A DNA stretch of 46,753 bases, taken from positions 1 to 46,753 of the forward strand of contig JAHEFO010000005.1 of NCBI GenBank assembly GCA_024640135.1. The letters run 5' to 3'. Positions within the stretch are counted from its first letter, which is position 1. Each line of letters starts with the position of its first letter. Source of the stretch: Acidobacteriota bacterium. Lineage in GTDB: Bacteria; Acidobacteriota; Vicinamibacteria; Vicinamibacterales; SCN-69-37. This document shows, one piece after another, positions 35,481-45,492 of this stretch. The notes under the pieces were generated by a model. It had not been told where the DNA came from. It did not search any database and saw only the letters and a program-made list of their open reading frames with translations. The position numbers and the translations under genes are program-made.

Positions 35481-38090
35481 ATGAAACGTGTAACGGGTCT
35501 CTCACTCGTGTTGGCTGCCGTGCTTGCCGCGCCATCGGTCCAGTCAGCTTCCCAGGCCCCCGCTGGGGGCGACGTACCGATTGGGCTCACGTGGCGCAAC
35601 GTCGGGCCCGGGGTCACTGGCACCCGGATCGTGGACTTTGCGGTGGTCGAACAGGATCCCGCGATTGTCTATGCGGCCACGGCATCCAGCGGTGTGTGGA
35701 AGACGCTGAACGCCGGCACCACATGGGAACCGCTGTTCCAGCACGAGGAGTCGATCTCCGTCGGTGGGATCGCGGTCTCGCAGTCAGACCCGGACATCGT
35801 CTGGGTGGCGACCGGTGAGCCGAACATGCGGAACCTCCGCAGCACCTCCTGGGGCACGGGTATCTACAAGAGTCTCGACGCGGGCCGCACATGGCGTCAC
35901 ATGGGACTCGCGGATGCGCGCCACATGGGCCGCGTGGTCATCCACCCCGCCAACCCAGACGTCGTCTTCGCGACCGTACTCGGATCGATGTGGCAGAACG
36001 ATCCTCGGCAGAATGCTGTCCGCGGCCTCTACAAGACCACCGACGGCGGTGCGACATGGAGCAAGACGCTCTCGGCCGGCGACCACGCCGGCATCGTGGA
36101 CCTCGTCATGGATCCCACCCAGCCGGACACGCTGTATGCGGCCGCGTGGCACCGCGAACGCCGCGACTGGAGCTTCGTCAACGTCGGCCCTGAGAGCGGG
36201 CTCTTCAAGTCCACCGACGGCGGCGACACGTGGACGAAACTTACAGCCGGCCTGCCGGTGACGCCAACGGGACGGCCCGGTGTCACGGTCTGCCGCTCGA
36301 GGCCGGCGACGCTGTATGCGGTCGTCGAAGGGGCCGACGGGGGCGTGTATCGCTCAACGGACGCCGGAGCGATCTGGACGCGCGTCAACACGATGTCCGC
36401 ATCATCGATGTACTACGGCCAGGTGCGCTGCGACCCGAACAACCCGGAACGGGTATACGTGCTCCAGACCCAGATGGCAATGTCGACGGACGGGGGCAAA
36501 ACCTTCACAACAGATATCCCTGGCCGGAGCGTGCATGTCGATCACCACGCGCTCTGGATCGATCCATCCGATTCGAGTCACCAGTGGCTGGGCAACGACG
36601 GGGGCATTTACCAGACGCGCGACCGCGGCGTGACATGGAGGTTCCACGATCAGCTCTCTGCCACACAGTTCTACGCGGTGGCCGTCGACATGCGCGAGCC
36701 GTTCTACTACGTCTGCGGCGGCACCCAGGACAACAACTCGCTCTGTGGCCCCTCGGCCACCCGAAACACGGACGGCATCGTCAATGCGGACTGGTATGTG
36801 ACGACCGGCGGCGACGGGTTCGCGCTCCAAATCGACCCGACCGACCCGTCGGTGGTGTACACCGAATCGCAGTACGGCGCTCTCGTGCAGTTCAACCCGT
36901 TCACGGGCCAACGGCGGCGGATTCAGCCTCAGGCGCCAGAGGGCCAGACCTATCGCTGGAATTGGAACGCGCCAATGCGGATCTCGCCGCACGACCCTGG
37001 CACGTTCTACTACGGCGCACAGTTCCTGTTCCGAACGCGCGACCGCGGCGCCACCTGGGATGTCGTCAGCCCCGATCTCACACGCCAGGTGGCAATCGAT
37101 CCGGAGCACCTGATCTCGCCCTACAGCACGCTGCTCTGGATTGATGAGTCTCCCCGCCATCGCGGATGGCTGGCGGTCGGCACGGATGACGGGCTGATCC
37201 AGGTGACCGAGGACGACGGAGCGACGTGGCGGCAGGCCGCTGCGATACCGGGCGTGCCCGAGCGCGCGCAGATTCGGCGTGTCTTCCACTCGGCGCATGA
37301 CGACCGCACCCTCTATGCCGCGGCGTCGGCGCATGAAGACGACACCTTCAGGCCGTTCGTCGCGAAGAGCACGGACCACGGCAGAACGTGGACGCGCATC
37401 GACACAGACCTGCCCATGCGCAGTCCGGTGATGTCGCTGGTGGAGGATCCCGTGAATCCCCTCTTGCTCTTTGCGGGCACACAGTTCGGGATCTACGCCA
37501 CCATCGACGGCGGGTCGCGCTGGTTCTCCCTTCAGCTGAACCTGCCCACCAGCCCCGTGCACGACATGGTGATTCATCCGCGCGAGGGCGATCTGGTGAT
37601 CGGCACGCACGGACGCGGGATCTGGCTGCTCGACTCGCTGGCCGGCCTGCGGGGGTTGACGCCTGAGGTACTGGCCGGCCCTGGCACGATCTTCACGCCG
37701 CGGCCGGCCTTCCAGATGACACGCTTTGATCGAGGCCGCAACGCGATGGGCAGCGCGTACTTCACCGCGCCCAATCCGCCAGACGGCGTGTCTCTCGACG
37801 TGTATCTGAACCCTTCGGGCACCGACGCTCCAACCATCGAGATCGCGGACGCCACCGGACGGGTTGTGCGGCGGCTCACCGCGCCGTCCGCCCGAGGACT
37901 CCAGCGCATCCTCTGGGACATGCGGGGCGATCCGCCCGCGGGGGCTCCCGGGAGTCCGGGGCGCGGACGTGGCGGGGCGCGGCCCCTGGTCGCGCCTGGC
38001 ACGTACGAGGCGCGGTTCACCCTCGCCAGCCTGACCACCCGCGTGCCGATCGTCGTACGCCCGGATCCAGGAGGACCTGGGAGGCCGTAG
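35481..38090 (+). CDS. Secreted BNR/Asp-box (VPS10/GH74-like) beta-propeller protein
   Basis: Signal peptide, many S/T-x-D-G-G-x-T-W repeats, HVDHHALWIDP, GTHGRG, FlgD-Ig-like tail. Confidence 0.85.
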   Translation: MKRVTGLSLVLAAVLAAPSVQSASQAPAGGDVPIGLTWRNVGPGVTGTRIVDFAVVEQDPAIVYAATASSGVWKTLNAGTTWEPLFQHEESISVGGIAVSQSDPDIVWVATGEPNMRNLRSTSWGTGIYKSLDAGRTWRHMGLADARHMGRVVIHPANPDVVFATVLGSMWQNDPRQNAVRGLYKTTDGGATWSKTLSAGDHAGIVDLVMDPTQPDTLYAAAWHRERRDWSFVNVGPESGLFKSTDGGDTWTKLTAGLPVTPTGRPGVTVCRSRPATLYAVVEGADGGVYRSTDAGAIWTRVNTMSASSMYYGQVRCDPNNPERVYVLQTQMAMSTDGGKTFTTDIPGRSVHVDHHALWIDPSDSSHQWLGNDGGIYQTRDRGVTWRFHDQLSATQFYAVAVDMREPFYYVCGGTQDNNSLCGPSATRNTDGIVNADWYVTTGGDGFALQIDPTDPSVVYTESQYGALVQFNPFTGQRRRIQPQAPEGQTYRWNWNAPMRISPHDPGTFYYGAQFLFRTRDRGATWDVVSPDLTRQVAIDPEHLISPYSTLLWIDESPRHRGWLAVGTDDGLIQVTEDDGATWRQAAAIPGVPERAQIRRVFHSAHDDRTLYAAASAHEDDTFRPFVAKSTDHGRTWTRIDTDLPMRSPVMSLVEDPVNPLLLFAGTQFGIYATIDGGSRWFSLQLNLPTSPVHDMVIHPREGDLVIGTHGRGIWLLDSLAGLRGLTPEVLAGPGTIFTPRPAFQMTRFDRGRNAMGSAYFTAPNPPDGVSLDVYLNPSGTDAPTIEIADATGRVVRRLTAPSARGLQRILWDMRGDPPAGAPGSPGRGRGGARPLVAPGTYEARFTLASLTTRVPIVVRPDPGGPGRP

Positions 38091-38116
38091 GAACCGATCC
38101 GGCTTCCTGGCTGGTG

Positions 38117-38719
38117 TCAGCGCTGAGTTCTGCCGGTGGACGCCCGTCGGCCCCTGGGAGGCTTCGGAAGGACGCTGACGGCTGCCTGCAGCTGCGCGCC
38201 CGCCGTGCCGAGCGCGTCAACCAGTGCCCGCAACTCAGGCGTGAGTTCAGCCACCGCCAATGCCGTCGTCACCCGTTCGATCGCGGCAGCGGGCGCGTGA
38301 ACGGCGGAGGCCTGGCGTTCCAGTTGCTCGGCGGCCAGCATGTGTTCGCGCGCCTTCTGCAGCAGCGGCCGTGTGTCGTTGTCACCGGTCAGGCGCTCGA
38401 TGACCAGCAGAGCCCGGCGTTCGACCGTCAGCGCCGTGGCGCGCATGAGCGTCTCTTCGCCGGCGATCGGCACCACGAACGGACCGGAGTCGGCCCGGGC
38501 GCCGCGCCGTTCGTGCCATGCGACCCACGCCTGCGGCAGGAAGTGATCCAGGAACGGAAGCCTGGTGTCGTCGTCTGACGTCTCGGGCGGGTCCACGCCC
38601 AGCGCAGCTTCGAGCCACTCCGGCGCCGTGCCCAGCGTCCGGAATCGTCCATCCATGGTGTGTTCGAACACCGTGACATCCAGGGCCCGCAGGACACTGG
38701 CGAGTAACGTTTCGCTCAT
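38117..38719 (-). CDS. Hypothetical protein: PAS-like domain plus degenerate HisKA-like helical hairpin
   Basis: ATGA overlap with the GTPase stop; alpha/beta N-domain (ALDVTVFE...PFLDHFL...SGPF...LLVIE); C-terminal ELTPELRALVDAL helix. Confidence 0.75.
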   Translation of the reverse strand: MSETLLASVLRALDVTVFEHTMDGRFRTLGTAPEWLEAALGVDPPETSDDDTRLPFLDHFLPQAWVAWHERRGARADSGPFVVPIAGEETLMRATALTVERRALLVIERLTGDNDTRPLLQKAREHMLAAEQLERQASAVHAPAAAIERVTTALAVAELTPELRALVDALGTAGAQLQAAVSVLPKPPRGRRASTGRTQR

Positions 38720-39249
38720 ACCAGCCCCTGACCAATCAGCGGCCCGGCGGAGGCGCCGGCCAGCATCGCCCGCGTGAGTGTCTCGAACGCCTGTTCCACG
38801 CCTTCGCCGGTCTTCGCGCTCGTTCGAATGACCCGCCAGCCCTGTTCGGCCATCTTGAAGAACATCTGCTCGTCAATCTCCCATTCGTCGGCGAGATCGT
38901 ACTTGTTCAGGAGCAGAATGAACGGCACGGATCCGACGGCCTCAACGGCCTTCTGCTGCATGAGTCGCGCGGTCTCCAATGTCGCGCGCCTGGTCCCGTC
39001 CACCACGAGCAGATACCCTGACATGCCGCGCAGATGCGACACCGGCACCGCCTGATAATCGTCATGACCGTAGATATCCCAGAGCATCAACTGCGCATCC
39101 TGCCCGTCGACGGTGACCTGCTTCTTGTCGATCTTGACGCCAACCGTCGTCAGGTACTTCTCCGAGAACATACTGGTGACGTATTGGGCGACCAGACTCG
39201 TCTTGCCGACGGCGAATCCGCCCAGCATGCAGATTTTCTTCTGAATCAT
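38716..39249 (-). CDS. Ras/Rab-like small GTPase (stand-alone, 177 aa)
   Basis: G1 GGFAVGKT, G2 YLTTVG, G3 WDIYG, G4 NKYD, G5 TSAKTG; strong AGGAGG RBS. Confidence 0.92.
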   Translation of the reverse strand: MIQKKICMLGGFAVGKTSLVAQYVTSMFSEKYLTTVGVKIDKKQVTVDGQDAQLMLWDIYGHDDYQAVPVSHLRGMSGYLLVVDGTRRATLETARLMQQKAVEAVGSVPFILLLNKYDLADEWEIDEQMFFKMAEQGWRVIRTSAKTGEGVEQAFETLTRAMLAGASAGPLIGQGLV

Positions 39250-39274
39250 GATCGACCTCCTCGTCCGCCGCCGG

Positions 39275-41008
39275 CTATTCGCCCGACCCGGTCCGCCTCG
39301 TCACCGTGATCTGCACCCGCCGGTTGCGTTGCTTGTCGACACTATTCTCGCTCATCACGGCCGGTTGCCGGCTGCCTTCTCCCCGGGACACCACTTCCAG
39401 AAACGTCGTGGCGGCCGGGGCGATCGAGACGCGGACGAAGTCGGCTCTGGCCTGGCTCAGCGGCACATTGGCGGCCTCGATCCCATCCGAATCAGTGTGC
39501 CCCACGACTTCGACCCGAAAACGCAGTCCGGTCACACCGGCGATCTGCTCCAACTGACGGGTCTCCTCTGCCAGGCGGCCCAGGGCCACCTCCTGGCCTG
39601 ACGTCAGCCGCGCCGCGCCGCTGATGAACAGGAGCGTCTGCCCTTCAATGGCATCGACCAGGCTCTGGATCTGCCCTGACAGCGCACCGGCCGCGTCAAG
39701 CGACGTCACGCCGGCGACCAGCGGCGCCAGGCGCGCGGCCTCCGCCACCCATTCGAGGGTCACCGCACCGTCCGCCGACAGCACGCCATCGCGTACCGTC
39801 AGCGTGACCCCCGGCGGTGGCCGCAGGGCGCTGGCGGCACGGGCCGCCACCAGGATCGGGTCAAGCGCATAGTAGGGGGTCCAAACGCCGTGCACGTCAT
39901 CGGACGGCAATCCGGTGTCCACCAGCAACTCCTGCGGATCGCGCGCGAGCGGATCACGAAGCCCGGAGACCGTGAAGCCGCCCCACGTCCGGTCGGAAGC
40001 CACCACGACAATGCCAGGCTCGGCGCGCAACGCCTCGAGGTAGGACGACCATCGCTCGGCCGTGCGCCATCGGAGCCCCGCCCACACGAGGATCCCCAGC
40101 AGGACGAGACCCGCGATGACCCAGGTGCTCCGGCTTCTCGGCGCAGTGTCGTCGGCACGGTACTCGGCCGACAGGCAGGTCTCGAGCGTCTGCTGGGTGC
40201 CCGCGAGGGCGCTGGCATCTCCGGTGAACGACTCCAGCACATCGCCGAATTGCAGGTGGATGGACTCGACGGCCTCCTGGAGCCGGCCGCGCAGCGAGGC
40301 GGGCGCGGATCCGCGAATCACCGCGGCCACGATGGCATGGGGCCCGGGCTCAATCCACACAGACAGATCGCCCACCTTGAGGGCTTCAAGGGAATCCGAC
40401 GATTCGACCCGGAACGAGTCCTGCACGAAATCCTTGATGGCTGTGAGCATGCCCGACACCATGTCGGCGTCCTGAACGGCCGCGTGCGCCGCCGACACGT
40501 GCTGGAGGAGCAGGCCGCTCTTGCGTTCGATCAGGAACACCTGCTCGACCCTGTACAGCAGTGTCTTGATGAGCACCAGTTCGGCGAACGATTTCCCGGT
40601 TCTCCACGCCTCCAGACGCCACTGGAGTGAGCGTCGCGACACGGCTTGTTCCAGTGTTCGATTGAGGCTTTCGACCATGCTGGCCAGGCCGGCGGACACA
40701 GCCTTGCGGATGGCCGGTCCCATCACCGGGAACAGCGCATCGGCCAGCGGCTTCGGGTTGCGCTGGACTGACGTCGTGATGGCCTTTTCGATTGGCGGCG
40801 TCAATGCTGCCGTGAAACGCGGATCCTGCGAGTGTTGCAGGAAGACGCGCGGCAGCACCTCGGCTACGTCGGCAGCGCGCTCCTCAGGATCGTCCAGGCG
40901 CGCCTGCAGATCCGCCAGTTGCTGCTGCTCGGGTCCAAGGAGTAACGTCCGAAGTTCTTCGAGGTCGGCTGCCGGCCCGGGATCGCCTGAATCGGCGCGG
41001 TCATCCAC
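39275..41008 (-). CDS. Single-pass membrane protein: cytoplasmic helical and longin-like domains, periplasmic BON-like and OmpA-like domains
   Basis: TM at aa ~296-312; C-terminal VVGHTDSDG..N..LSQARA...NRRV OmpA_C signature; GTG start overlapping the upstream gene's end. Confidence 0.85.
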   Translation of the reverse strand: MDDRADSGDPGPAADLEELRTLLLGPEQQQLADLQARLDDPEERAADVAEVLPRVFLQHSQDPRFTAALTPPIEKAITTSVQRNPKPLADALFPVMGPAIRKAVSAGLASMVESLNRTLEQAVSRRSLQWRLEAWRTGKSFAELVLIKTLLYRVEQVFLIERKSGLLLQHVSAAHAAVQDADMVSGMLTAIKDFVQDSFRVESSDSLEALKVGDLSVWIEPGPHAIVAAVIRGSAPASLRGRLQEAVESIHLQFGDVLESFTGDASALAGTQQTLETCLSAEYRADDTAPRSRSTWVIAGLVLLGILVWAGLRWRTAERWSSYLEALRAEPGIVVVASDRTWGGFTVSGLRDPLARDPQELLVDTGLPSDDVHGVWTPYYALDPILVAARAASALRPPPGVTLTVRDGVLSADGAVTLEWVAEAARLAPLVAGVTSLDAAGALSGQIQSLVDAIEGQTLLFISGAARLTSGQEVALGRLAEETRQLEQIAGVTGLRFRVEVVGHTDSDGIEAANVPLSQARADFVRVSIAPAATTFLEVVSRGEGSRQPAVMSENSVDKQRNRRVQITVTRRTGSGE

Positions 41009-41597
41009 GTCGACCCTTGTCGGTGCCAGGAAGCTGCAGCTCGTTCGTGAGCCGCATGGCCATTTCGGTGAGCAGCGACGCCAGGATGGCTCGATCCGCC
41101 TTTTCGGTGCGGAGTTCCGTGGCTTCCTGCGTGAGCCGCGCCAGAACCTCGTCAGTCTTCTGCTGCAGCTCGTCAGTCATGCGCTTGTGCAAGTCGAGTG
41201 CCTGCTGGCGCAACTCCCGCTGCGCGCGGTCGATCTGGTCACCCAGTTGCCCGCTCTTCTTTTCGAACGTCTTGGTCGCTTCACGCGTCTCGCGGGCCAG
41301 GTCCTTGTCGGCGCTCGTGCGCTCGCTGTTTTCGGTCTTGATGCGTTCGCCGATCGACCCGGACTCCTGCTTGACAAACTGCTCGAGGGCGGCGAGGCGC
41401 TTCCGCACGTCCTCCTTCATCGCGCTTGTTTCCTTCAGCAGGCGCTCCTCGAGCCGCACGAAGCGGCGCTCGTAATCGCGCATCTGACCGCCGAACAGGA
41501 TGTCGCGGACCTTGTCGATGTTTCCGGCGCCCAGATCGTCCGAGGGCGTAGCGGCCGGCTTCTTCTTGGATTTTGCTCGGTCGGTCTTGGTGGCCAC
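41001..41597 (-). CDS. Coiled-coil hypothetical protein (198 aa)
   Basis: GTG 41597 with GAGGA RBS; NIDKVRDILFG, then charged heptad-like helices. Confidence 0.8.
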   Translation of the reverse strand: MATKTDRAKSKKKPAATPSDDLGAGNIDKVRDILFGGQMRDYERRFVRLEERLLKETSAMKEDVRKRLAALEQFVKQESGSIGERIKTENSERTSADKDLARETREATKTFEKKSGQLGDQIDRAQRELRQQALDLHKRMTDELQQKTDEVLARLTQEATELRTEKADRAILASLLTEMAMRLTNELQLPGTDKGRRG

Positions 41598-41722
41598 GAT
41601 GGGTATCCTCTGTGCTGCGATGTCGTCACACCCGGTCCCGGGTCCCGATCCCGGATCCCAAAACAAATATCACACCGGCTCGAACGCGTGATCCCAGTGC
41701 GCCCTGACAAGGCGTGACGACC

Positions 41723-42064
41723 TCAGGCCACGCCGAGCAGTTCCACCTCGAAGACCAGCGTCGCATTCGGCGGGATCACTCGCCCGGCGCCACGCGCTCC
41801 GTAGGCGAACTCAGGCGGCAGCACCAACCGGCGATGTCCACCGACCTTCATTCCCTGGACGCCCTGATCCCAGCCTCGAATGACCTGTCCCGCGCCGATC
41901 CTGAACGAGAAGGGGCCCCTGCCAATCGAGGAATCGAACTGGGCGCCTTTGTTCTCGGGCCCGCTCTCCGAGTAGAGCCATCCGGTGTAGTTCACAGTGG
42001 CGGTCTGGCCCGTCATCGCCATCGCCCCGGTGCCGTCCTGCAGGTCCGTCTGAGAATACGTCAT
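41723..42064 (-). CDS. FKBP-type peptidyl-prolyl cis-trans isomerase
   Basis: VNYTGWL, FDSS, VIRGWDQG, AYG...IPPNATLVFEVELL. Confidence 0.95.
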   Translation of the reverse strand: MTYSQTDLQDGTGAMAMTGQTATVNYTGWLYSESGPENKGAQFDSSIGRGPFSFRIGAGQVIRGWDQGVQGMKVGGHRRLVLPPEFAYGARGAGRVIPPNATLVFEVELLGVA

Positions 42065-42069
42065 CCTCC

Positions 42070-42660
42070 CTACCTCCCCACCTTGCCGATCATCCGCATG
42101 ATGTCATCCAGGGGATTGCCGTCGCCGTCCAGATCCAACATCGACGCGAGTCCGCTGCCCGATTTGGCGCCGGCTCCGGAGGCGCTGCCTCCAAGCAATC
42201 CTCCCAACAGATCGCCGAGTCCGCCACCGGCCGGCGCCATCGGTGCCTGGGCGCCACCGCCCTGCTGCTTCGAAATGAAGCCACCGACGAGCATCGCCAG
42301 CATCGGCAACATCTTCTTGAGCACCGATGCATCGAGTCCCGACTGCGACGAGGCGTTTTTCGCCACCGCGCGGCTCACGTCCTTCGAACCGAAGATTTGC
42401 CCGAGCACGTCGTTACCGCGGGCCACATTCGTCGGCCTCGCCCCCAGCACGTCGTCGAGCAGCCCACCACCGCCGAGTTGACCGAGCAAACCGCCGAGCC
42501 CTTCCAGGCCGGAGGTCTGCTGCGCCTGTTTCTTGAACCCTCCGAGAACCGCCGGGCCCAGAGCTGCAGCGCCCTTCGCCGCATCGGCTTCGCTGACGCC
42601 GAGTTCCCGGGCGATTGATTGAAGGCCGCCCATCTGGGCAAGGATGTCTGAAAGCTGCAT
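42070..42660 (-). CDS. DUF937-like Gly-rich protein
   Basis: IARELGVSE, GNDVLGQIFGSKDVSR, LKKMLPMLA, LDLDGDGNPLDD. Confidence 0.8.
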   Translation of the reverse strand: MQLSDILAQMGGLQSIARELGVSEADAAKGAAALGPAVLGGFKKQAQQTSGLEGLGGLLGQLGGGGLLDDVLGARPTNVARGNDVLGQIFGSKDVSRAVAKNASSQSGLDASVLKKMLPMLAMLVGGFISKQQGGGAQAPMAPAGGGLGDLLGGLLGGSASGAGAKSGSGLASMLDLDGDGNPLDDIMRMIGKVGR

Positions 42661-42831
42661 TGTCGGCTCCTTTGGCTGGTCGTTTGGCGGTGTCGCCCTT
42701 CATGATTGCGTTTGGCACCGCGGACTGCAAGGACAATGGTGGAACACCGGGCTCTGCTGACCGCCGCCCCTGACGATCGGCGGAATCCGGTGACACTGAC
42801 AGAGTCGAAAGTGTGGCTCTACAATACTGGC

Positions 42832-45492
42832 GTGGATACGAAAGCCCCCCTTCGCCTTATTCTCGCGGCTGCGTTTCTTGCGGCCGCGTCGGCTGCGCCT
42901 GTGGCTCGCCAGTCGGCGCAGGCCACCTCCCCCGCAGAACGCCGTCAATCCTGGATTGACCACGTGGCCATGCGGGACGGGTCTGAGTTTCGCGGCATGC
43001 GCTGGCACGCGCTGGGACCGTCGCAGCAGGGATCGCGAATAGAAGCGATCGCGTTGTCACCGGGCGATCCAGCGACCATGTACGTAGGACCTGGCGGCGG
43101 CAACGTCTGGAAGACCACCAACAACGGAATCACATGGTCCCCAGTCTTCGACCATGAATCCGCATTCTCGATCGGCGACATCGCCGTCGCGCCGTCCGAC
43201 GAATCCATCGTCTGGGTCGGCACCGGAGAGGTGCAGCCAAGGCATAGCGGTCCGTCGTTTTCCGGGACCGGTGTGTTCAAGTCTTCCGACGCCGGGCAGA
43301 CGTGGACCAACCAGGGCCTCGGCGACACGCATCACATTGGCAAGGTCCTGATCCATCCGACCAATCCGGACCTCGTGTACGTGGCGGCCATGGGCCACTT
43401 CCGATCGGCCAACGACGAACGCGGCGTGTTCCGGACGACCGACGGCGGCCGAACTTGGAGCCGGTCGCTTTTTGTCAGCGACCAGACCGGCGTCATCGAT
43501 CTGGTGATGGATTCATCAGATCCCGACACGCTTCTTGCCTGGGCCTGGCAACTGACCGTGGACGGCGAGAGCGGCCCCCAGAGCGGGCTCTACAAAACGA
43601 CTGACGCGGGTGTGAGCTGGAAGAAGATCACGGCCGGATTACCGGCCGGTCCGATGGGGCGCGCGGGACTCGACATTGCGCCGAGCCGGCCCAACGTCAT
43701 GTACGCCTTTGTCGACAACTGGACGCCGGTGACGGGCGATGGCAACCGCTCCATCGTCGGTGGCGAAGTCTACCGCTCTGACGATCGCGGTGAGTCCTGG
43801 AAGAAGGCGAATACCGACGATACCTATGGCGTATTTGGCATCTTTGGATGGAAGTTTGCCGATGTGCGCATATCGCCCATCGACGAGAACGAGCTCTACA
43901 TCCTTGGCAACCGGATGTTCCGTTCCACCGACGGCGGCAAGACCTTCACGCGCATCGGCGAAACGATTCGACGGGTCAACAATACGCCCGGCGAAACAAT
44001 GCACCTCGATCACCATGAACTCGTGATCGACCCCAGGAATCCAGCGCGCCTGATCCTGGGCAACGATGGCGGCGTGTTCATCTCACACGACAAGGGCGCC
44101 ACCTGGCTCCATCTCAACAACATTCCGATCGGCCAGTTCTACTTCGTCACGGTTGATGACGGAGATCCCTATCGCATTTATGCCGGGTCACAGGACACCG
44201 GCGCGCTCGTGGGGCCATCGACGTATCGCTACGCCGCCGATCCGGTTGCGACTGATGCGTGGCGCTACATCTGGCTCGATCAGTGGACCGGCGGCGATGC
44301 ATTTACGACGCTTCCGGACCCCACCCATCCAGGGCTGGTGTACTACGAGCACCAGAATGGCGCGATGCGGCGCATCGACATGTCGGTCGGAAATCCCTAC
44401 TCCGGGGGACCGGCGACCGAAGTGGTTCGGCCGCGTCCGGCCGACGGTGATCCTCCGGTGCGCTTCAGCTGGTTCACGCCGTATCTCATCTCGCATCACG
44501 ACCCGCACACCTTGTATGCCGCGGGCAACGTCGTGTTCAAGACCACCGACCGGGCGGCGACCTGGCGCCGGATCAGTCCCGACCTCGGCGAGCCGGGAAG
44601 CACCGAACGCGCGATGGTGCCGACCGGCGCGATCACGACGCTGAGCGAGTCGAGACTGAAGGCAGGCGTCCTCTATGCCGGCACTGAGGGTGGCAAGGTC
44701 TGGGTGACCCAGGACGATGGTGAACAGTGGGCCGAGATCACGGCAGGCCTGAGAGACAGCAAGTGGGTCACGCGCGTAGTGGCGTCTGAGCATGATGAGG
44801 CGGTGGTCTACGCCGCTCAGAGCGGGTACCGGCAGGACGACTTCAGGTCGTACATCTTCCGATCGGCCGATCACGGCACCACGTGGCAATCGATTGCCAA
44901 CGGCCTGCCTGCCGAGCCCGTCAACGTCATCATTGAGGACCCGACATCACCCTCCATTCTCTACGTGGGGACGGATCTGGGTGTCTACGTCACGCTGGAC
45001 GCCGGCCGGTCCTGGCAATCGCTCGTCGCGGATCTCCCCAGCACGCCCGTCTACGACCTTGTTGTTCATCGGCGGGAAGGCGAACTGATCGCCGCGACAC
45101 ATGGGCGGGGGCTCTTCCTTCTGGATGTGCGGCCGGTTCAGGCGAGTGCGGCGGCCACTTCCGGGCCCGGACTTACCGTGTTCCCGGTACGTCCCGTCCG
45201 ACTGACCTGGCACGTGCGGCGTGAAGTGCCCCCGCAGCCCCCTCGGGGAATCGCGGAAATCCACTACCGAGTGGCTGCGGGCGGCGATGTGCAGATGATC
45301 GTTCGAGACGGACAGGGACGCGTGGTCAGGACCCTGGCCGGTCGCGCCGTGCCGGGCGTCAATGTCCTCGAGTGGGACGCGCGCAATGATGCCGGCCGGG
45401 ACATGGCCCCTGGCACCTACCAGGTGGAGGTCAGCTCGGCAGGGATGCAGGCAACCACGATGGTGGAGTTGTTGCCAGTGGAGCCGCGCTAG
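42832..45492 (+). CDS. Second secreted BNR/Asp-box (VPS10-like) beta-propeller protein
   Basis: Signal peptide after GTG 42832, Asp-box repeats, HLDHH, ATHGRG, FlgD-Ig-like tail; TACAAT ends 6 nt before the start. Confidence 0.85.
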   Translation: MDTKAPLRLILAAAFLAAASAAPVARQSAQATSPAERRQSWIDHVAMRDGSEFRGMRWHALGPSQQGSRIEAIALSPGDPATMYVGPGGGNVWKTTNNGITWSPVFDHESAFSIGDIAVAPSDESIVWVGTGEVQPRHSGPSFSGTGVFKSSDAGQTWTNQGLGDTHHIGKVLIHPTNPDLVYVAAMGHFRSANDERGVFRTTDGGRTWSRSLFVSDQTGVIDLVMDSSDPDTLLAWAWQLTVDGESGPQSGLYKTTDAGVSWKKITAGLPAGPMGRAGLDIAPSRPNVMYAFVDNWTPVTGDGNRSIVGGEVYRSDDRGESWKKANTDDTYGVFGIFGWKFADVRISPIDENELYILGNRMFRSTDGGKTFTRIGETIRRVNNTPGETMHLDHHELVIDPRNPARLILGNDGGVFISHDKGATWLHLNNIPIGQFYFVTVDDGDPYRIYAGSQDTGALVGPSTYRYAADPVATDAWRYIWLDQWTGGDAFTTLPDPTHPGLVYYEHQNGAMRRIDMSVGNPYSGGPATEVVRPRPADGDPPVRFSWFTPYLISHHDPHTLYAAGNVVFKTTDRAATWRRISPDLGEPGSTERAMVPTGAITTLSESRLKAGVLYAGTEGGKVWVTQDDGEQWAEITAGLRDSKWVTRVVASEHDEAVVYAAQSGYRQDDFRSYIFRSADHGTTWQSIANGLPAEPVNVIIEDPTSPSILYVGTDLGVYVTLDAGRSWQSLVADLPSTPVYDLVVHRREGELIAATHGRGLFLLDVRPVQASAAATSGPGLTVFPVRPVRLTWHVRREVPPQPPRGIAEIHYRVAAGGDVQMIVRDGQGRVVRTLAGRAVPGVNVLEWDARNDAGRDMAPGTYQVEVSSAGMQATTMVELLPVEPR

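Follow-up and report, generated by a model that had tools for sequence, protein, structure and literature searches.

A Rab-like GTPase gene module resembling the Group 1 Rup neighborhood in an Acidobacteriota genome

We analyzed a 46,753-nucleotide (nt) stretch of DNA, called the window here (positions 1 to 46,753 of contig JAHEFO010000005.1, assembly GCA_024640135.1, from an Acidobacteriota bacterium of the Vicinamibacterales). At positions 38117-41597, its list of open reading frames (ORFs) places four co-oriented genes head to tail on the minus strand in the order A-B-C-D. These four genes form a conserved unit, and C is a Rab-like, Rup-type GTPase. With somewhat better than even confidence, we read the locus as an Acidobacteriota (Vicinamibacterales-like) Group 1 Rup module, in which a membrane- and wall-anchored GTPase switch would be served by a GTPase-activating protein (GAP) acting in trans. 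It is a variant of a module that comparative genomics had already revealed and does not amount to a new kind of system.

The four genes and their products

Gene A occupies positions 41001-41597, gene B 39275-41008 (577 amino acids [aa]), gene C 38716-39249 (177 aa), and gene D 38117-38719 (200 aa), all on the minus strand. The ORF of A reaches 41666 through an upstream TTG, which would give 221 aa; an in-frame GTG at 41597, preceded by GAGGA, gives 198 aa and is the likelier start, and the tblastn matches of relatives to A, which mostly start past residue 20, fit it. A and B overlap by 8 nt (GTGGATGA), the 25-nt gap between B and C contains an AGGAGG ribosome-binding site (39256-39261, minus strand) 6 nt ahead of the ATG of C, and C and D overlap in an ATGA. 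Gene orientation and junctions read exactly as given in a preliminary description that had been made from the sequence alone. A consensus scan of 37900-42100 found no promoter-like sites, and terminator-like sites were no more numerous than in shuffles.

C is a single domain whose best Pfam match is Ras (110 bits, with Roc at 72 and Arf at 48). The solved proteins nearest to it, searched with a 25-homolog profile, are Rab23 (E = 2.6e-36), a Thorarchaeota Rab, and Rab1, 2, 7, and 8, in agreement with the earlier view of a Rab-like rather than MglA-like protein. The alignment displays all five G boxes that had been claimed for a stand-alone GTPase: G1 (GxxxxGKT), the switch I Thr, G3 (DxxG), G4 (NKxD), and G5 (SAK). 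Among 81 homologs, G1 is found in 80, NKxD in 78, and SA[KLR] in 72, and Asp58 of G3 is invariant in the homolog alignment. The G3 of C reads DIYGH, with His at the position of the catalytic Gln of Ras and Rab proteins. The residue following DxxG in 79 homologs is Q in 28, E in 28, A in 14, T in 5, and H, D, N, or S in one each; the Mesorhizobium homolog has E and the Nostoc homolog S. This "catalytic" position is unconstrained across the homologs. The translated C-terminal tail has no Cys and hence no prenylation motif of the eukaryotic Rab type. Used as a query, C turned up no second close GTPase in the genome. The Roadblock/MglB family PF03259 had no match at E ≤ 0.01 in this 98% complete genome, as anticipated from the reported absence of an mglB partner; an identical search gave matches in 3/14 control genomes.

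B contains a single hydrophobic segment at residues ∼296-313 (40070-40123, minus strand; Kyte-Doolittle, 19-residue window, maximum 2.09), and no other membrane-spanning helix is predicted in the module, A, C, and D all staying below 1.6 in the same kind of scan. Because B has no signal peptide and an acidic N terminus, its N terminus is placed inside and its OmpA-like domain in the periplasm. The order along the chain is a cytoplasmic helical region, a longin domain, the membrane helix, a periplasmic linker module, and the OmpA-like domain. Residues 150-283 (40160-40561, minus strand) are predicted to adopt a longin fold. The model of residues 1-300 was built on a 27-sequence alignment (mean pLDDT 67.8), and 10-residue blocks within 150-283 have mean pLDDT values from 46 to 93. 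The modeled domain has the longin order of secondary structure (beta-beta-alpha-beta-beta-beta-alpha-alpha). In VIA-align, it superposes on the Sec22b longin 1ifq_B (Z 14.6, rmsd 2.4 Å, 125/128 aligned), Ykt6 (Z 13.6), the Rab23 exchange factor Fuzzy (Z 12.6), and Mon1-Ccz1 (Z 9.6-9.8), with MglB not among the 50 listed rows; in Foldseek, TM-scores by target are 0.66-0.72 for longin chains versus 0.41-0.47 for MglB.

The OmpA-like peptidoglycan-binding domain of B lies at residues ∼455-570 (39299-39646, minus strand). It is matched by Pfam OmpA at residues 496-563 (E = 4.6e-7) and by NCBIfam models of the OmpA/TssL/YfiB type at residues 455-571. The sequence of B also carries TDxxG and LSxxRA, which we take to be peptidoglycan-binding motifs. 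B is thus modeled as a bitopic protein of the inner membrane, its longin-fold domain facing the cytoplasm and its OmpA-like domain the periplasm. The longin-membrane helix-OmpA architecture of the preliminary description stands, and its term "trans-envelope" was too strong: B crosses the inner membrane and carries a peptidoglycan-binding domain, and nothing reaches the outer membrane.

The periplasmic stretch at residues 315-424 of B (∼39737-40066) has no Pfam match. In the homolog on a Mesorhizobium sp. WSM1497 plasmid (1021 aa, L094:6318-7928), it matches three extra places beyond the main collinear match and so behaves as a repeatable module, perhaps serving as a variable-length spacer. The look-alikes that the ESM Atlas gives for B(1-295) are only unnamed clusters from Pseudomonadota, Chloroflexota, and Acidobacteriota, to be taken as leads only.

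D matched no Pfam or NCBIfam family, and Pfam gave nothing even at E ≤ 1. Its model (20-sequence alignment, mean pLDDT 88.5) places a PAS-like domain at residues 1-112, followed by helices at 113-155 and 161-182. The best Foldseek matches are PAS-histidine-kinase chains (∼210 aligned columns), followed by many PAS domains. The helical hairpin at residues 113-182 (38174-38383, minus strand) resembles DHp/HisKA in the model, in Foldseek, and in alignment A7. In A7, D and the other short forms do not have the 20-30 residues that bear the phospho-accepting His of the kinases and retain the subsequent Pro and the second HisKA helix. The His of D itself stands 2 residues ahead of the conserved Pro, not 5, and varies in relatives (H, Q, K, R, L, M). 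Pfam finds no HATPase_c in D, so that no ATPase domain follows the hairpin. D therefore appears, from fold matches and alignment, to be a PAS-like domain joined to a kinase-derived hairpin from which the phospho-His and ATPase domain have been lost, much as the earlier label of a PAS-like/pseudo-HisKA protein had it.

A profile of the first 140 residues of D, run against 1.84 billion cluster representatives, retrieved 1347 clusters at E ≤ 0.001, and composition was counted on the best 150 of these. Ninety of the 150 representatives are ≤235 aa long. The other 60 are longer and contain HATPase_c (42), HisKA (32), PAS_4 (19), receiver (15), Hpt (13), HD-GYP-type HD_5 (4), sigma-54 activator (1), and protein kinase (1) domains; some fuse the N-terminal domain of D straight to HisKA and HATPase_c. 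The relatives of D are mostly either short kinase-less forms or full histidine kinases. Where the long helix begins, D has a Q-x-x-R pair, Gln121 and Arg124 (codons at 38348-38359, minus strand), that is conserved in these alignments: Gln121 is kept in 144/150 representatives and Arg124 also in 144/150 (Q 85 and R 87 of the 90 short forms; Q 59 and R 57 of the 60 long forms). A profile search of the genome found no second D-type domain.

A is a long, helical protein, 40% charged, with conserved ends and a variable middle (alignment A9, 18 homologs). Its Pfam hits are weak (best, Apolipoprotein E, 0.016) and fall in apolipoprotein- and phasin-like families. Hydrophobic periodicity peaks at 3.60-3.65 in 18/18 sequences of A9 (41004-41597 and 17 homologs), and the peak of the window's A is reached by 0/1000 shuffles. 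By a crude test, power at the heptad period of 3.5 is not significant (reached by 266/2000 shuffles), which leaves a classical heptad coiled coil unsupported; hendecad repeats, or an amphipathic helix lying on the membrane, would account for the observed periodicity as well as a coiled coil would. The coiled-coil scaffold of the preliminary description is a conjectural role for A. The ESM Atlas look-alikes of A are unnamed clusters from Pseudomonadota, Chloroflexota, and Acidobacteriota, and the closest named one is SF-assemblin (score 0.76), all of them leads only.

Conservation of the module and variety of its fourth gene

Full-length B is present in 9/41 related genomes, our genome included, and the other matches cover the OmpA part only; within the genus, 5/20 genomes have it, one of them in two pieces. 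In every one of the eight relatives with a full B (8/8), tblastn recovers the succession A, B, C, with D next in seven; the eighth locus (L011) ends soon after C and is too short to show D. Identity in these relatives is highest for C (60-75%) and lowest for D (28-44%).

A wider scan, with one genome per species, found 319 relatives of the cytoplasmic part of B, and genes were counted at the best 80 of these 319 loci. Nearly all of the 80 are labeled Acidobacteriota (Vicinamibacterales, Pyrinomonadaceae, Blastocatellia, Thermoanaerobaculia). By tblastn, 38 have ABCD, 35 ABC, six AB, and one ABD, so that A and B are found in 80/80. Six of the seven loci that show no C stop inside B; the seventh (L083) has room for C, and none was detected. 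In these relatives B adjoins the GTPase gene. The recurrence of the order across relatives' and public loci indicates that the A-B-C-D arrangement is not due to chance.

Evenly sampled across the phylum, 151 genomes contained the N-terminal part of B in nine and a D-type domain in eight: both were found in eight genomes, B alone in one (G055, a genome with 45,593 withheld bases), D alone in none, and neither in 142. Kin are not independent of one another, but the genomes come from seven genera. Outside the phylum, 5 of 72,556 plasmid records matched C at E ≤ 1e-15, and the identical five matched the cytoplasmic part of B. A plasmid of Mesorhizobium sp. WSM1497 carries, by RefSeq names, a hypothetical protein, an OmpA family protein (1021 aa), a "Rab family GTPase," and an adenylate/guanylate cyclase; a plasmid of Nostoc flagelliforme carries a hypothetical protein, an OmpA family protein, a "Rab family GTPase," a hypothetical protein, and an ATP-binding protein. 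The A, B, and C of the window match genes of both plasmids by tblastn (C identity, 53% in Mesorhizobium and 37% in Nostoc), and D gave no tblastn match to the plasmids. The check on conservation across phyla that had been suggested at the outset thus came out positive, the A-B-C order being found in Acidobacteriota, Mesorhizobium, and Nostoc.

Four kinds of gene are found downstream of C among the relatives. Short D forms account for 30 of the 67 ORFs at this place, as matched by D. One locus (L054) has a 954-aa hybrid kinase carrying the N-terminal domain of D. Some 23 ORFs of 287-312 aa come mostly from Pyrinomonadaceae-labeled loci, and the one that was scanned has a PAS domain. The fourth kind is a 343-aa cyclase (L070). 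The 287-312-aa ORFs and this cyclase share another N-terminal region (alignment A8, 17 sequences), noted in Pyrinomonadaceae and Mesorhizobium; the A8 profile matches the N terminus of the Mesorhizobium cyclase at E = 1.5e-34. Members include a PAS fusion with a Pyrinomonadaceae label (L044:7272-8150) and two cyclase fusions (L070:6840-7871 and, in Mesorhizobium, L094:8432-9502). The A8 region has a conserved Gln-Gln-Lys at the corresponding place, with Asn where D has Arg124. Profile comparison of the D-type (alignment A3) and A8-type domains gave no sign of homology (hhalign probability 0.2%), and neither the Mesorhizobium nor the Nostoc locus matched the A3 profile at E ≤ 10. Output parts found among D-type and fourth-gene relatives are kinase, HD-GYP, cyclase, or PAS parts; D itself has none.

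Several loci depart from the common layout. The GTPase gene is upstream in L016 and on the other strand in L084; in L052, L060, and L084, a D-type gene is found beyond B, upstream of A, and in G136:C2:707567-710101 one is likewise found beyond B and not after the GTPase gene. Two genomes have their B homolog in two pieces (G017:C4:1281583-1283302 and G024:C7:111631-113323), one with an in-frame TGA, which could reflect a frameshift, a pseudogene, or an assembly error. On the Nostoc flagelliforme plasmid (L095:8102-10482), the two genes after that for the GTPase encode a hypothetical protein of 176 aa and an "ATP-binding protein" of 622 aa, which may represent a split fourth gene; the A3 and A8 profiles both detect nothing at this locus at E ≤ 10, and genes for an anti-sigma factor, a SpoIIE phosphatase, and a STAS protein come next.

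Comparison with Group 1 Rup and a model of the switch

Wuichet and Sogaard-Andersen (2014, Genome Biol Evol; PMC4316618), in the accessible text of their paper, to which all our statements about it are confined, described a Group 1 Rup neighborhood consisting of rup and genes for a coiled-coil protein, a protein with an unknown domain, a transmembrane segment, and an OmpA domain, and a signaling protein with an invariant N-terminal Gln, typically a GGDEF/EAL protein or a histidine kinase. Group 1 Rup has no conserved G3 Gln, and the authors proposed a conservon-like signaling complex and a Gln supplied in trans. The locus in the window has the same four components: a single-domain GTPase with eukaryote-like G1-G5 and no conserved G3 Gln; an unknown-domain/transmembrane/OmpA neighbor; a conserved long, charged helical protein upstream in 80/80 loci, with a periodicity of 3.6-3.65 in place of the 3.5 of a heptad coiled coil; and a fourth protein with a conserved N-terminal Gln. 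Its syntenic relatives in Mesorhizobium and Nostoc belong to genera that PMC4316618 names for Group 1. We infer that Gln121 of D corresponds to the invariant Gln of that paper.

The differences are four. Acidobacteriota are not among the taxa listed in the text of PMC4316618. D has neither a GGDEF/EAL nor a kinase output, which we regard as a variant and not an exclusion because the paper says "typically." No fold is given there for the domain now assigned to longin, a word that is absent from the paper, and its accessible text makes no mention of a conserved Arg beside the Gln. The preliminary description was right that Rup GTPases had been noted bioinformatically, but it overrated the novelty of the locus, since the neighborhood itself had been described in 2014 with nearly the same hypothesis (PMC4316618). 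New here are the phylum, the longin assignment, the Arg beside the Gln, the modeled C-D interface, the short kinase-less form of D and how common it is, the other N-terminal domain type found in fourth genes, and the non-heptad periodicity of A. Group 1 Rup GTPases are the bacterial proteins closest to eukaryotic Rab, Ras, Rho, and Ran, the families with which they are placed both by PMC4316618 and by the accessible text of a 2024 preprint on Asgard GTPases, in which Rup1 is only a reference group. No Rup protein had been characterized as of 2014 (PMC4316618), and the literature that we searched, with subscription journals mostly outside the search, held no functional characterization of a Rup system, as had been supposed, and no paper linking a longin fold, OmpA, and a bacterial GTPase.

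Evidence for contact between C and D comes from three modeling runs of C with GTP, Mg, and residues 1-140 of D. The runs gave ipSAE values of 0.66, 0.64, and 0.67, with the best control at 0.01; the score mark is reached by 58/80 solved complexes and 2/110 mismatched pairs, a calibration that is only rough, given the use of alignments made by us and of riding GTP and Mg. The runs share at least 93% of contacts, with a partner pLDDT of 81. On C, the interface is formed by the P-loop (residues 12-13), switch I and strand beta2 (32-40), and switch II (63-66), and on D, by strand 79-82 and helix 116-131. The lowest-error pairs are Thr34 of C with Gln121 of D, and Phe12 and Ala13 of C with Arg124 of D. 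The conserved Gln/Arg pair, placed at the nucleotide pocket in this model, suggests that D may be more than an effector and may act as a GAP. Of the earlier proposal that a wall-anchored protein controls the GTPase with the PAS protein downstream, all is compatible with these results, and direct support covers only the C-D contact.

A scheme can be drawn from these observations. B would sit in the inner membrane, tied to peptidoglycan, and its longin domain would recruit C and set the nucleotide state of C, either as an exchange factor, by analogy to eukaryotic longin pairs, or as a GAP like the related Roadblock protein MglB. GTP-bound C would dock through switch I and strand beta2 on the PAS-like sheet of D, whose Gln121 and Arg124 would reach the P-loop and switch I and make up in trans for the catalytic residues missing from C; D would then read the switch and also time its turning off. 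Where the D domain is fused to a kinase, HD-GYP, or another output, binding of C might also gate that output; with the output lost in this lineage, D would probably be a dimeric GAP or an adaptor. A would be a conserved helical partner, possibly lying on the membrane. The speculation of 2014 thus becomes concrete: Gln121 and Arg124 of D and residues 12-13 (P-loop) and 32-40 (switch I) of C should matter.

D could instead be purely an effector or adaptor. Rup-GTP would bind the PAS-like domain, the hairpin would repack and dock an unlinked kinase or regulator, and hydrolysis would be intrinsic or driven by B. In histidine kinases, the region of the second HisKA helix is a surface for dimerization and regulator docking, and the hairpin of D keeps this helix and the conserved Pro. 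Pairing of switch I and strand beta2 with strand 79-82 of D, as modeled, is a typical effector mode, and 28/79 of the GTPases retain a Gln of their own. An adaptor role alone leaves unexplained, however, why Gln121 and Arg124 are each kept in 144/150 representatives, in short and long forms alike, and why, in the model, their place is at the P-loop and switch I. Of the window ORFs, none next to the operon encodes a kinase or regulator, and the genome has no second D-type domain. We consider a pure effector unlikely, though it is the most serious competitor to a GAP acting in trans.

A landmark or polarity system, like MglA/MglB, is a more distant prospect and in our judgment an improbable one. 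B would fix a site on the wall, A would form a polymer or coat, the GTPase would mark the place, and the fusions would be secondary. The peptidoglycan-binding domain could serve as a fixed anchor, MglB, a regulator of polarity, belongs to the longin/Roadblock fold class, and A is a long helical protein with SF-assemblin as a look-alike (0.76 in the Atlas, a lead only). Against this, the fourth gene is nearly always of a signaling type; the patchy distribution of the module (full B in 5/20 genomes of the genus, B N-terminal part in 9/151 across the phylum) fits an accessory sensor better; and C has the G3 Asp that MglA lacks (PMC4316618). That A and B form a Zorya-like or stator-like anti-phage or motor pair is very improbable indeed: PADLOC matches A weakly to ZorA (best E = 8.7e-5) and B to ZorB (E = 2.3e-6), but a Zorya system would need a ZorA with a MotA-type membrane domain, a ZorB, and ZorC/D or ZorE, whereas the former hits fall on the helical tail of ZorA, A has no membrane segment, the latter is limited to the OmpA/MotB-type domain at residues 498-570, and C and D match nothing in PADLOC.

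Several observations weigh against a Group 1 Rup module with a GAP in trans. Membership in the Group 1 clade is read from synteny and motifs and not from a tree, and neither the accessible text of PMC4316618 nor the literature searched contains an experiment on Group 1 Rup. The model of B is of middling confidence overall, with residues 1-149 poorly defined. The C-D interface is itself a model, in which "fingers in the active site" are deduced from contacts with the P-loop and switch I. The G3 Gln kept by 28/79 C homologs implies that some of these systems could do without a Gln in trans. The other N-terminal domain type that follows rup has no detectable profile similarity to D and carries Asn in place of Arg124. 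Kinship of the D hairpin with HisKA comes from the predicted fold and one alignment (A7), and sequence proof of it was not obtained, Pfam being empty and a profile of the C-terminal part of D alone matching one kinase among 61 sequences, at an i-E of 0.0076.

A stronger claim would be that the Group 1 Rup module runs a complete Rab-style bacterial cycle, in which a wall-anchored longin protein loads a Rab-like GTPase and a dual finger of Gln and Arg on a PAS scaffold switches it off. We regard so full a parallel as doubtful. If true, the PAS-scaffold dual finger would have an evolutionary origin separate from that of TBC domains, the pairing of longin with Rab would have been invented by neither archaea nor eukaryotes, and the short D proteins would be widespread stand-alone bacterial GAPs derived from histidine kinases. 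The minimal form of the fourth protein here, ∼200 aa with no enzymatic output, is convenient for biochemistry and bears on the decay of histidine kinases into noncatalytic regulators.

Other known systems and the flanking genes

The eukaryotic Rab cycle is another comparator, with exchange factors built on longin domains (Mon1-Ccz1, Fuzzy-Inturned, TRAPP) and GAPs of the TBC-domain type. TBC RabGAPs supply both Arg and Gln in trans, a logic called "dual finger." The C profile is closest to Rab23 and other Rabs, and the modeled domain of B superposes on longins, including Rab exchange factors, the fold to which it is now assigned. Unlike in that cycle, C has no C-terminal prenylation Cys, the longin domain belongs to a membrane protein anchored in the wall, and the putative GAP, D, is predicted to be PAS-like instead of having a TBC fold.

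The MglA/MglB system of Myxococcus and Thermus likewise combines a bacterial small GTPase with a regulator of the longin/Roadblock class, and the Foldseek matches of B include MglB chains. In contrast to MglA, C carries Rab-like motifs and the G3 Asp, the genome gave no PF03259 match, and the domain of B is nearer to longin chains than to MglB. The actinobacterial conservons (CvnA-D) are also four-gene operons with a small GTPase, a longin/Roadblock-class regulator, and a histidine-kinase-type protein, a likeness to Group 1 Rup that has been drawn before (PMC4316618). A conservon comprises a GTPase of the MglA type, a free Roadblock protein, the functionally unassigned third protein CvnC, and a kinase in the membrane, whereas the window has a Rab-like GTPase, a longin domain fused to a transmembrane helix and OmpA, and a soluble dead kinase relative. 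Membership in either system was rejected because of the G3 Asp and the lack of a Roadblock match.

The genes around the operon are of other kinds. Upstream of A, ∼125 nt from its start, are genes for an FKBP-type prolyl isomerase and a DUF937 protein (41723-42064 and 42070-42660, both on the minus strand). A plus-strand gene of the Sortilin-Vps10/BNR-repeat type (35481-38090, 869 aa) converges on D and ends at 38090, and a second such paralog, with a FlgD Ig-like domain, lies on the other flank, on the strand opposite to the operon (42706-45492, plus strand, 928 aa).

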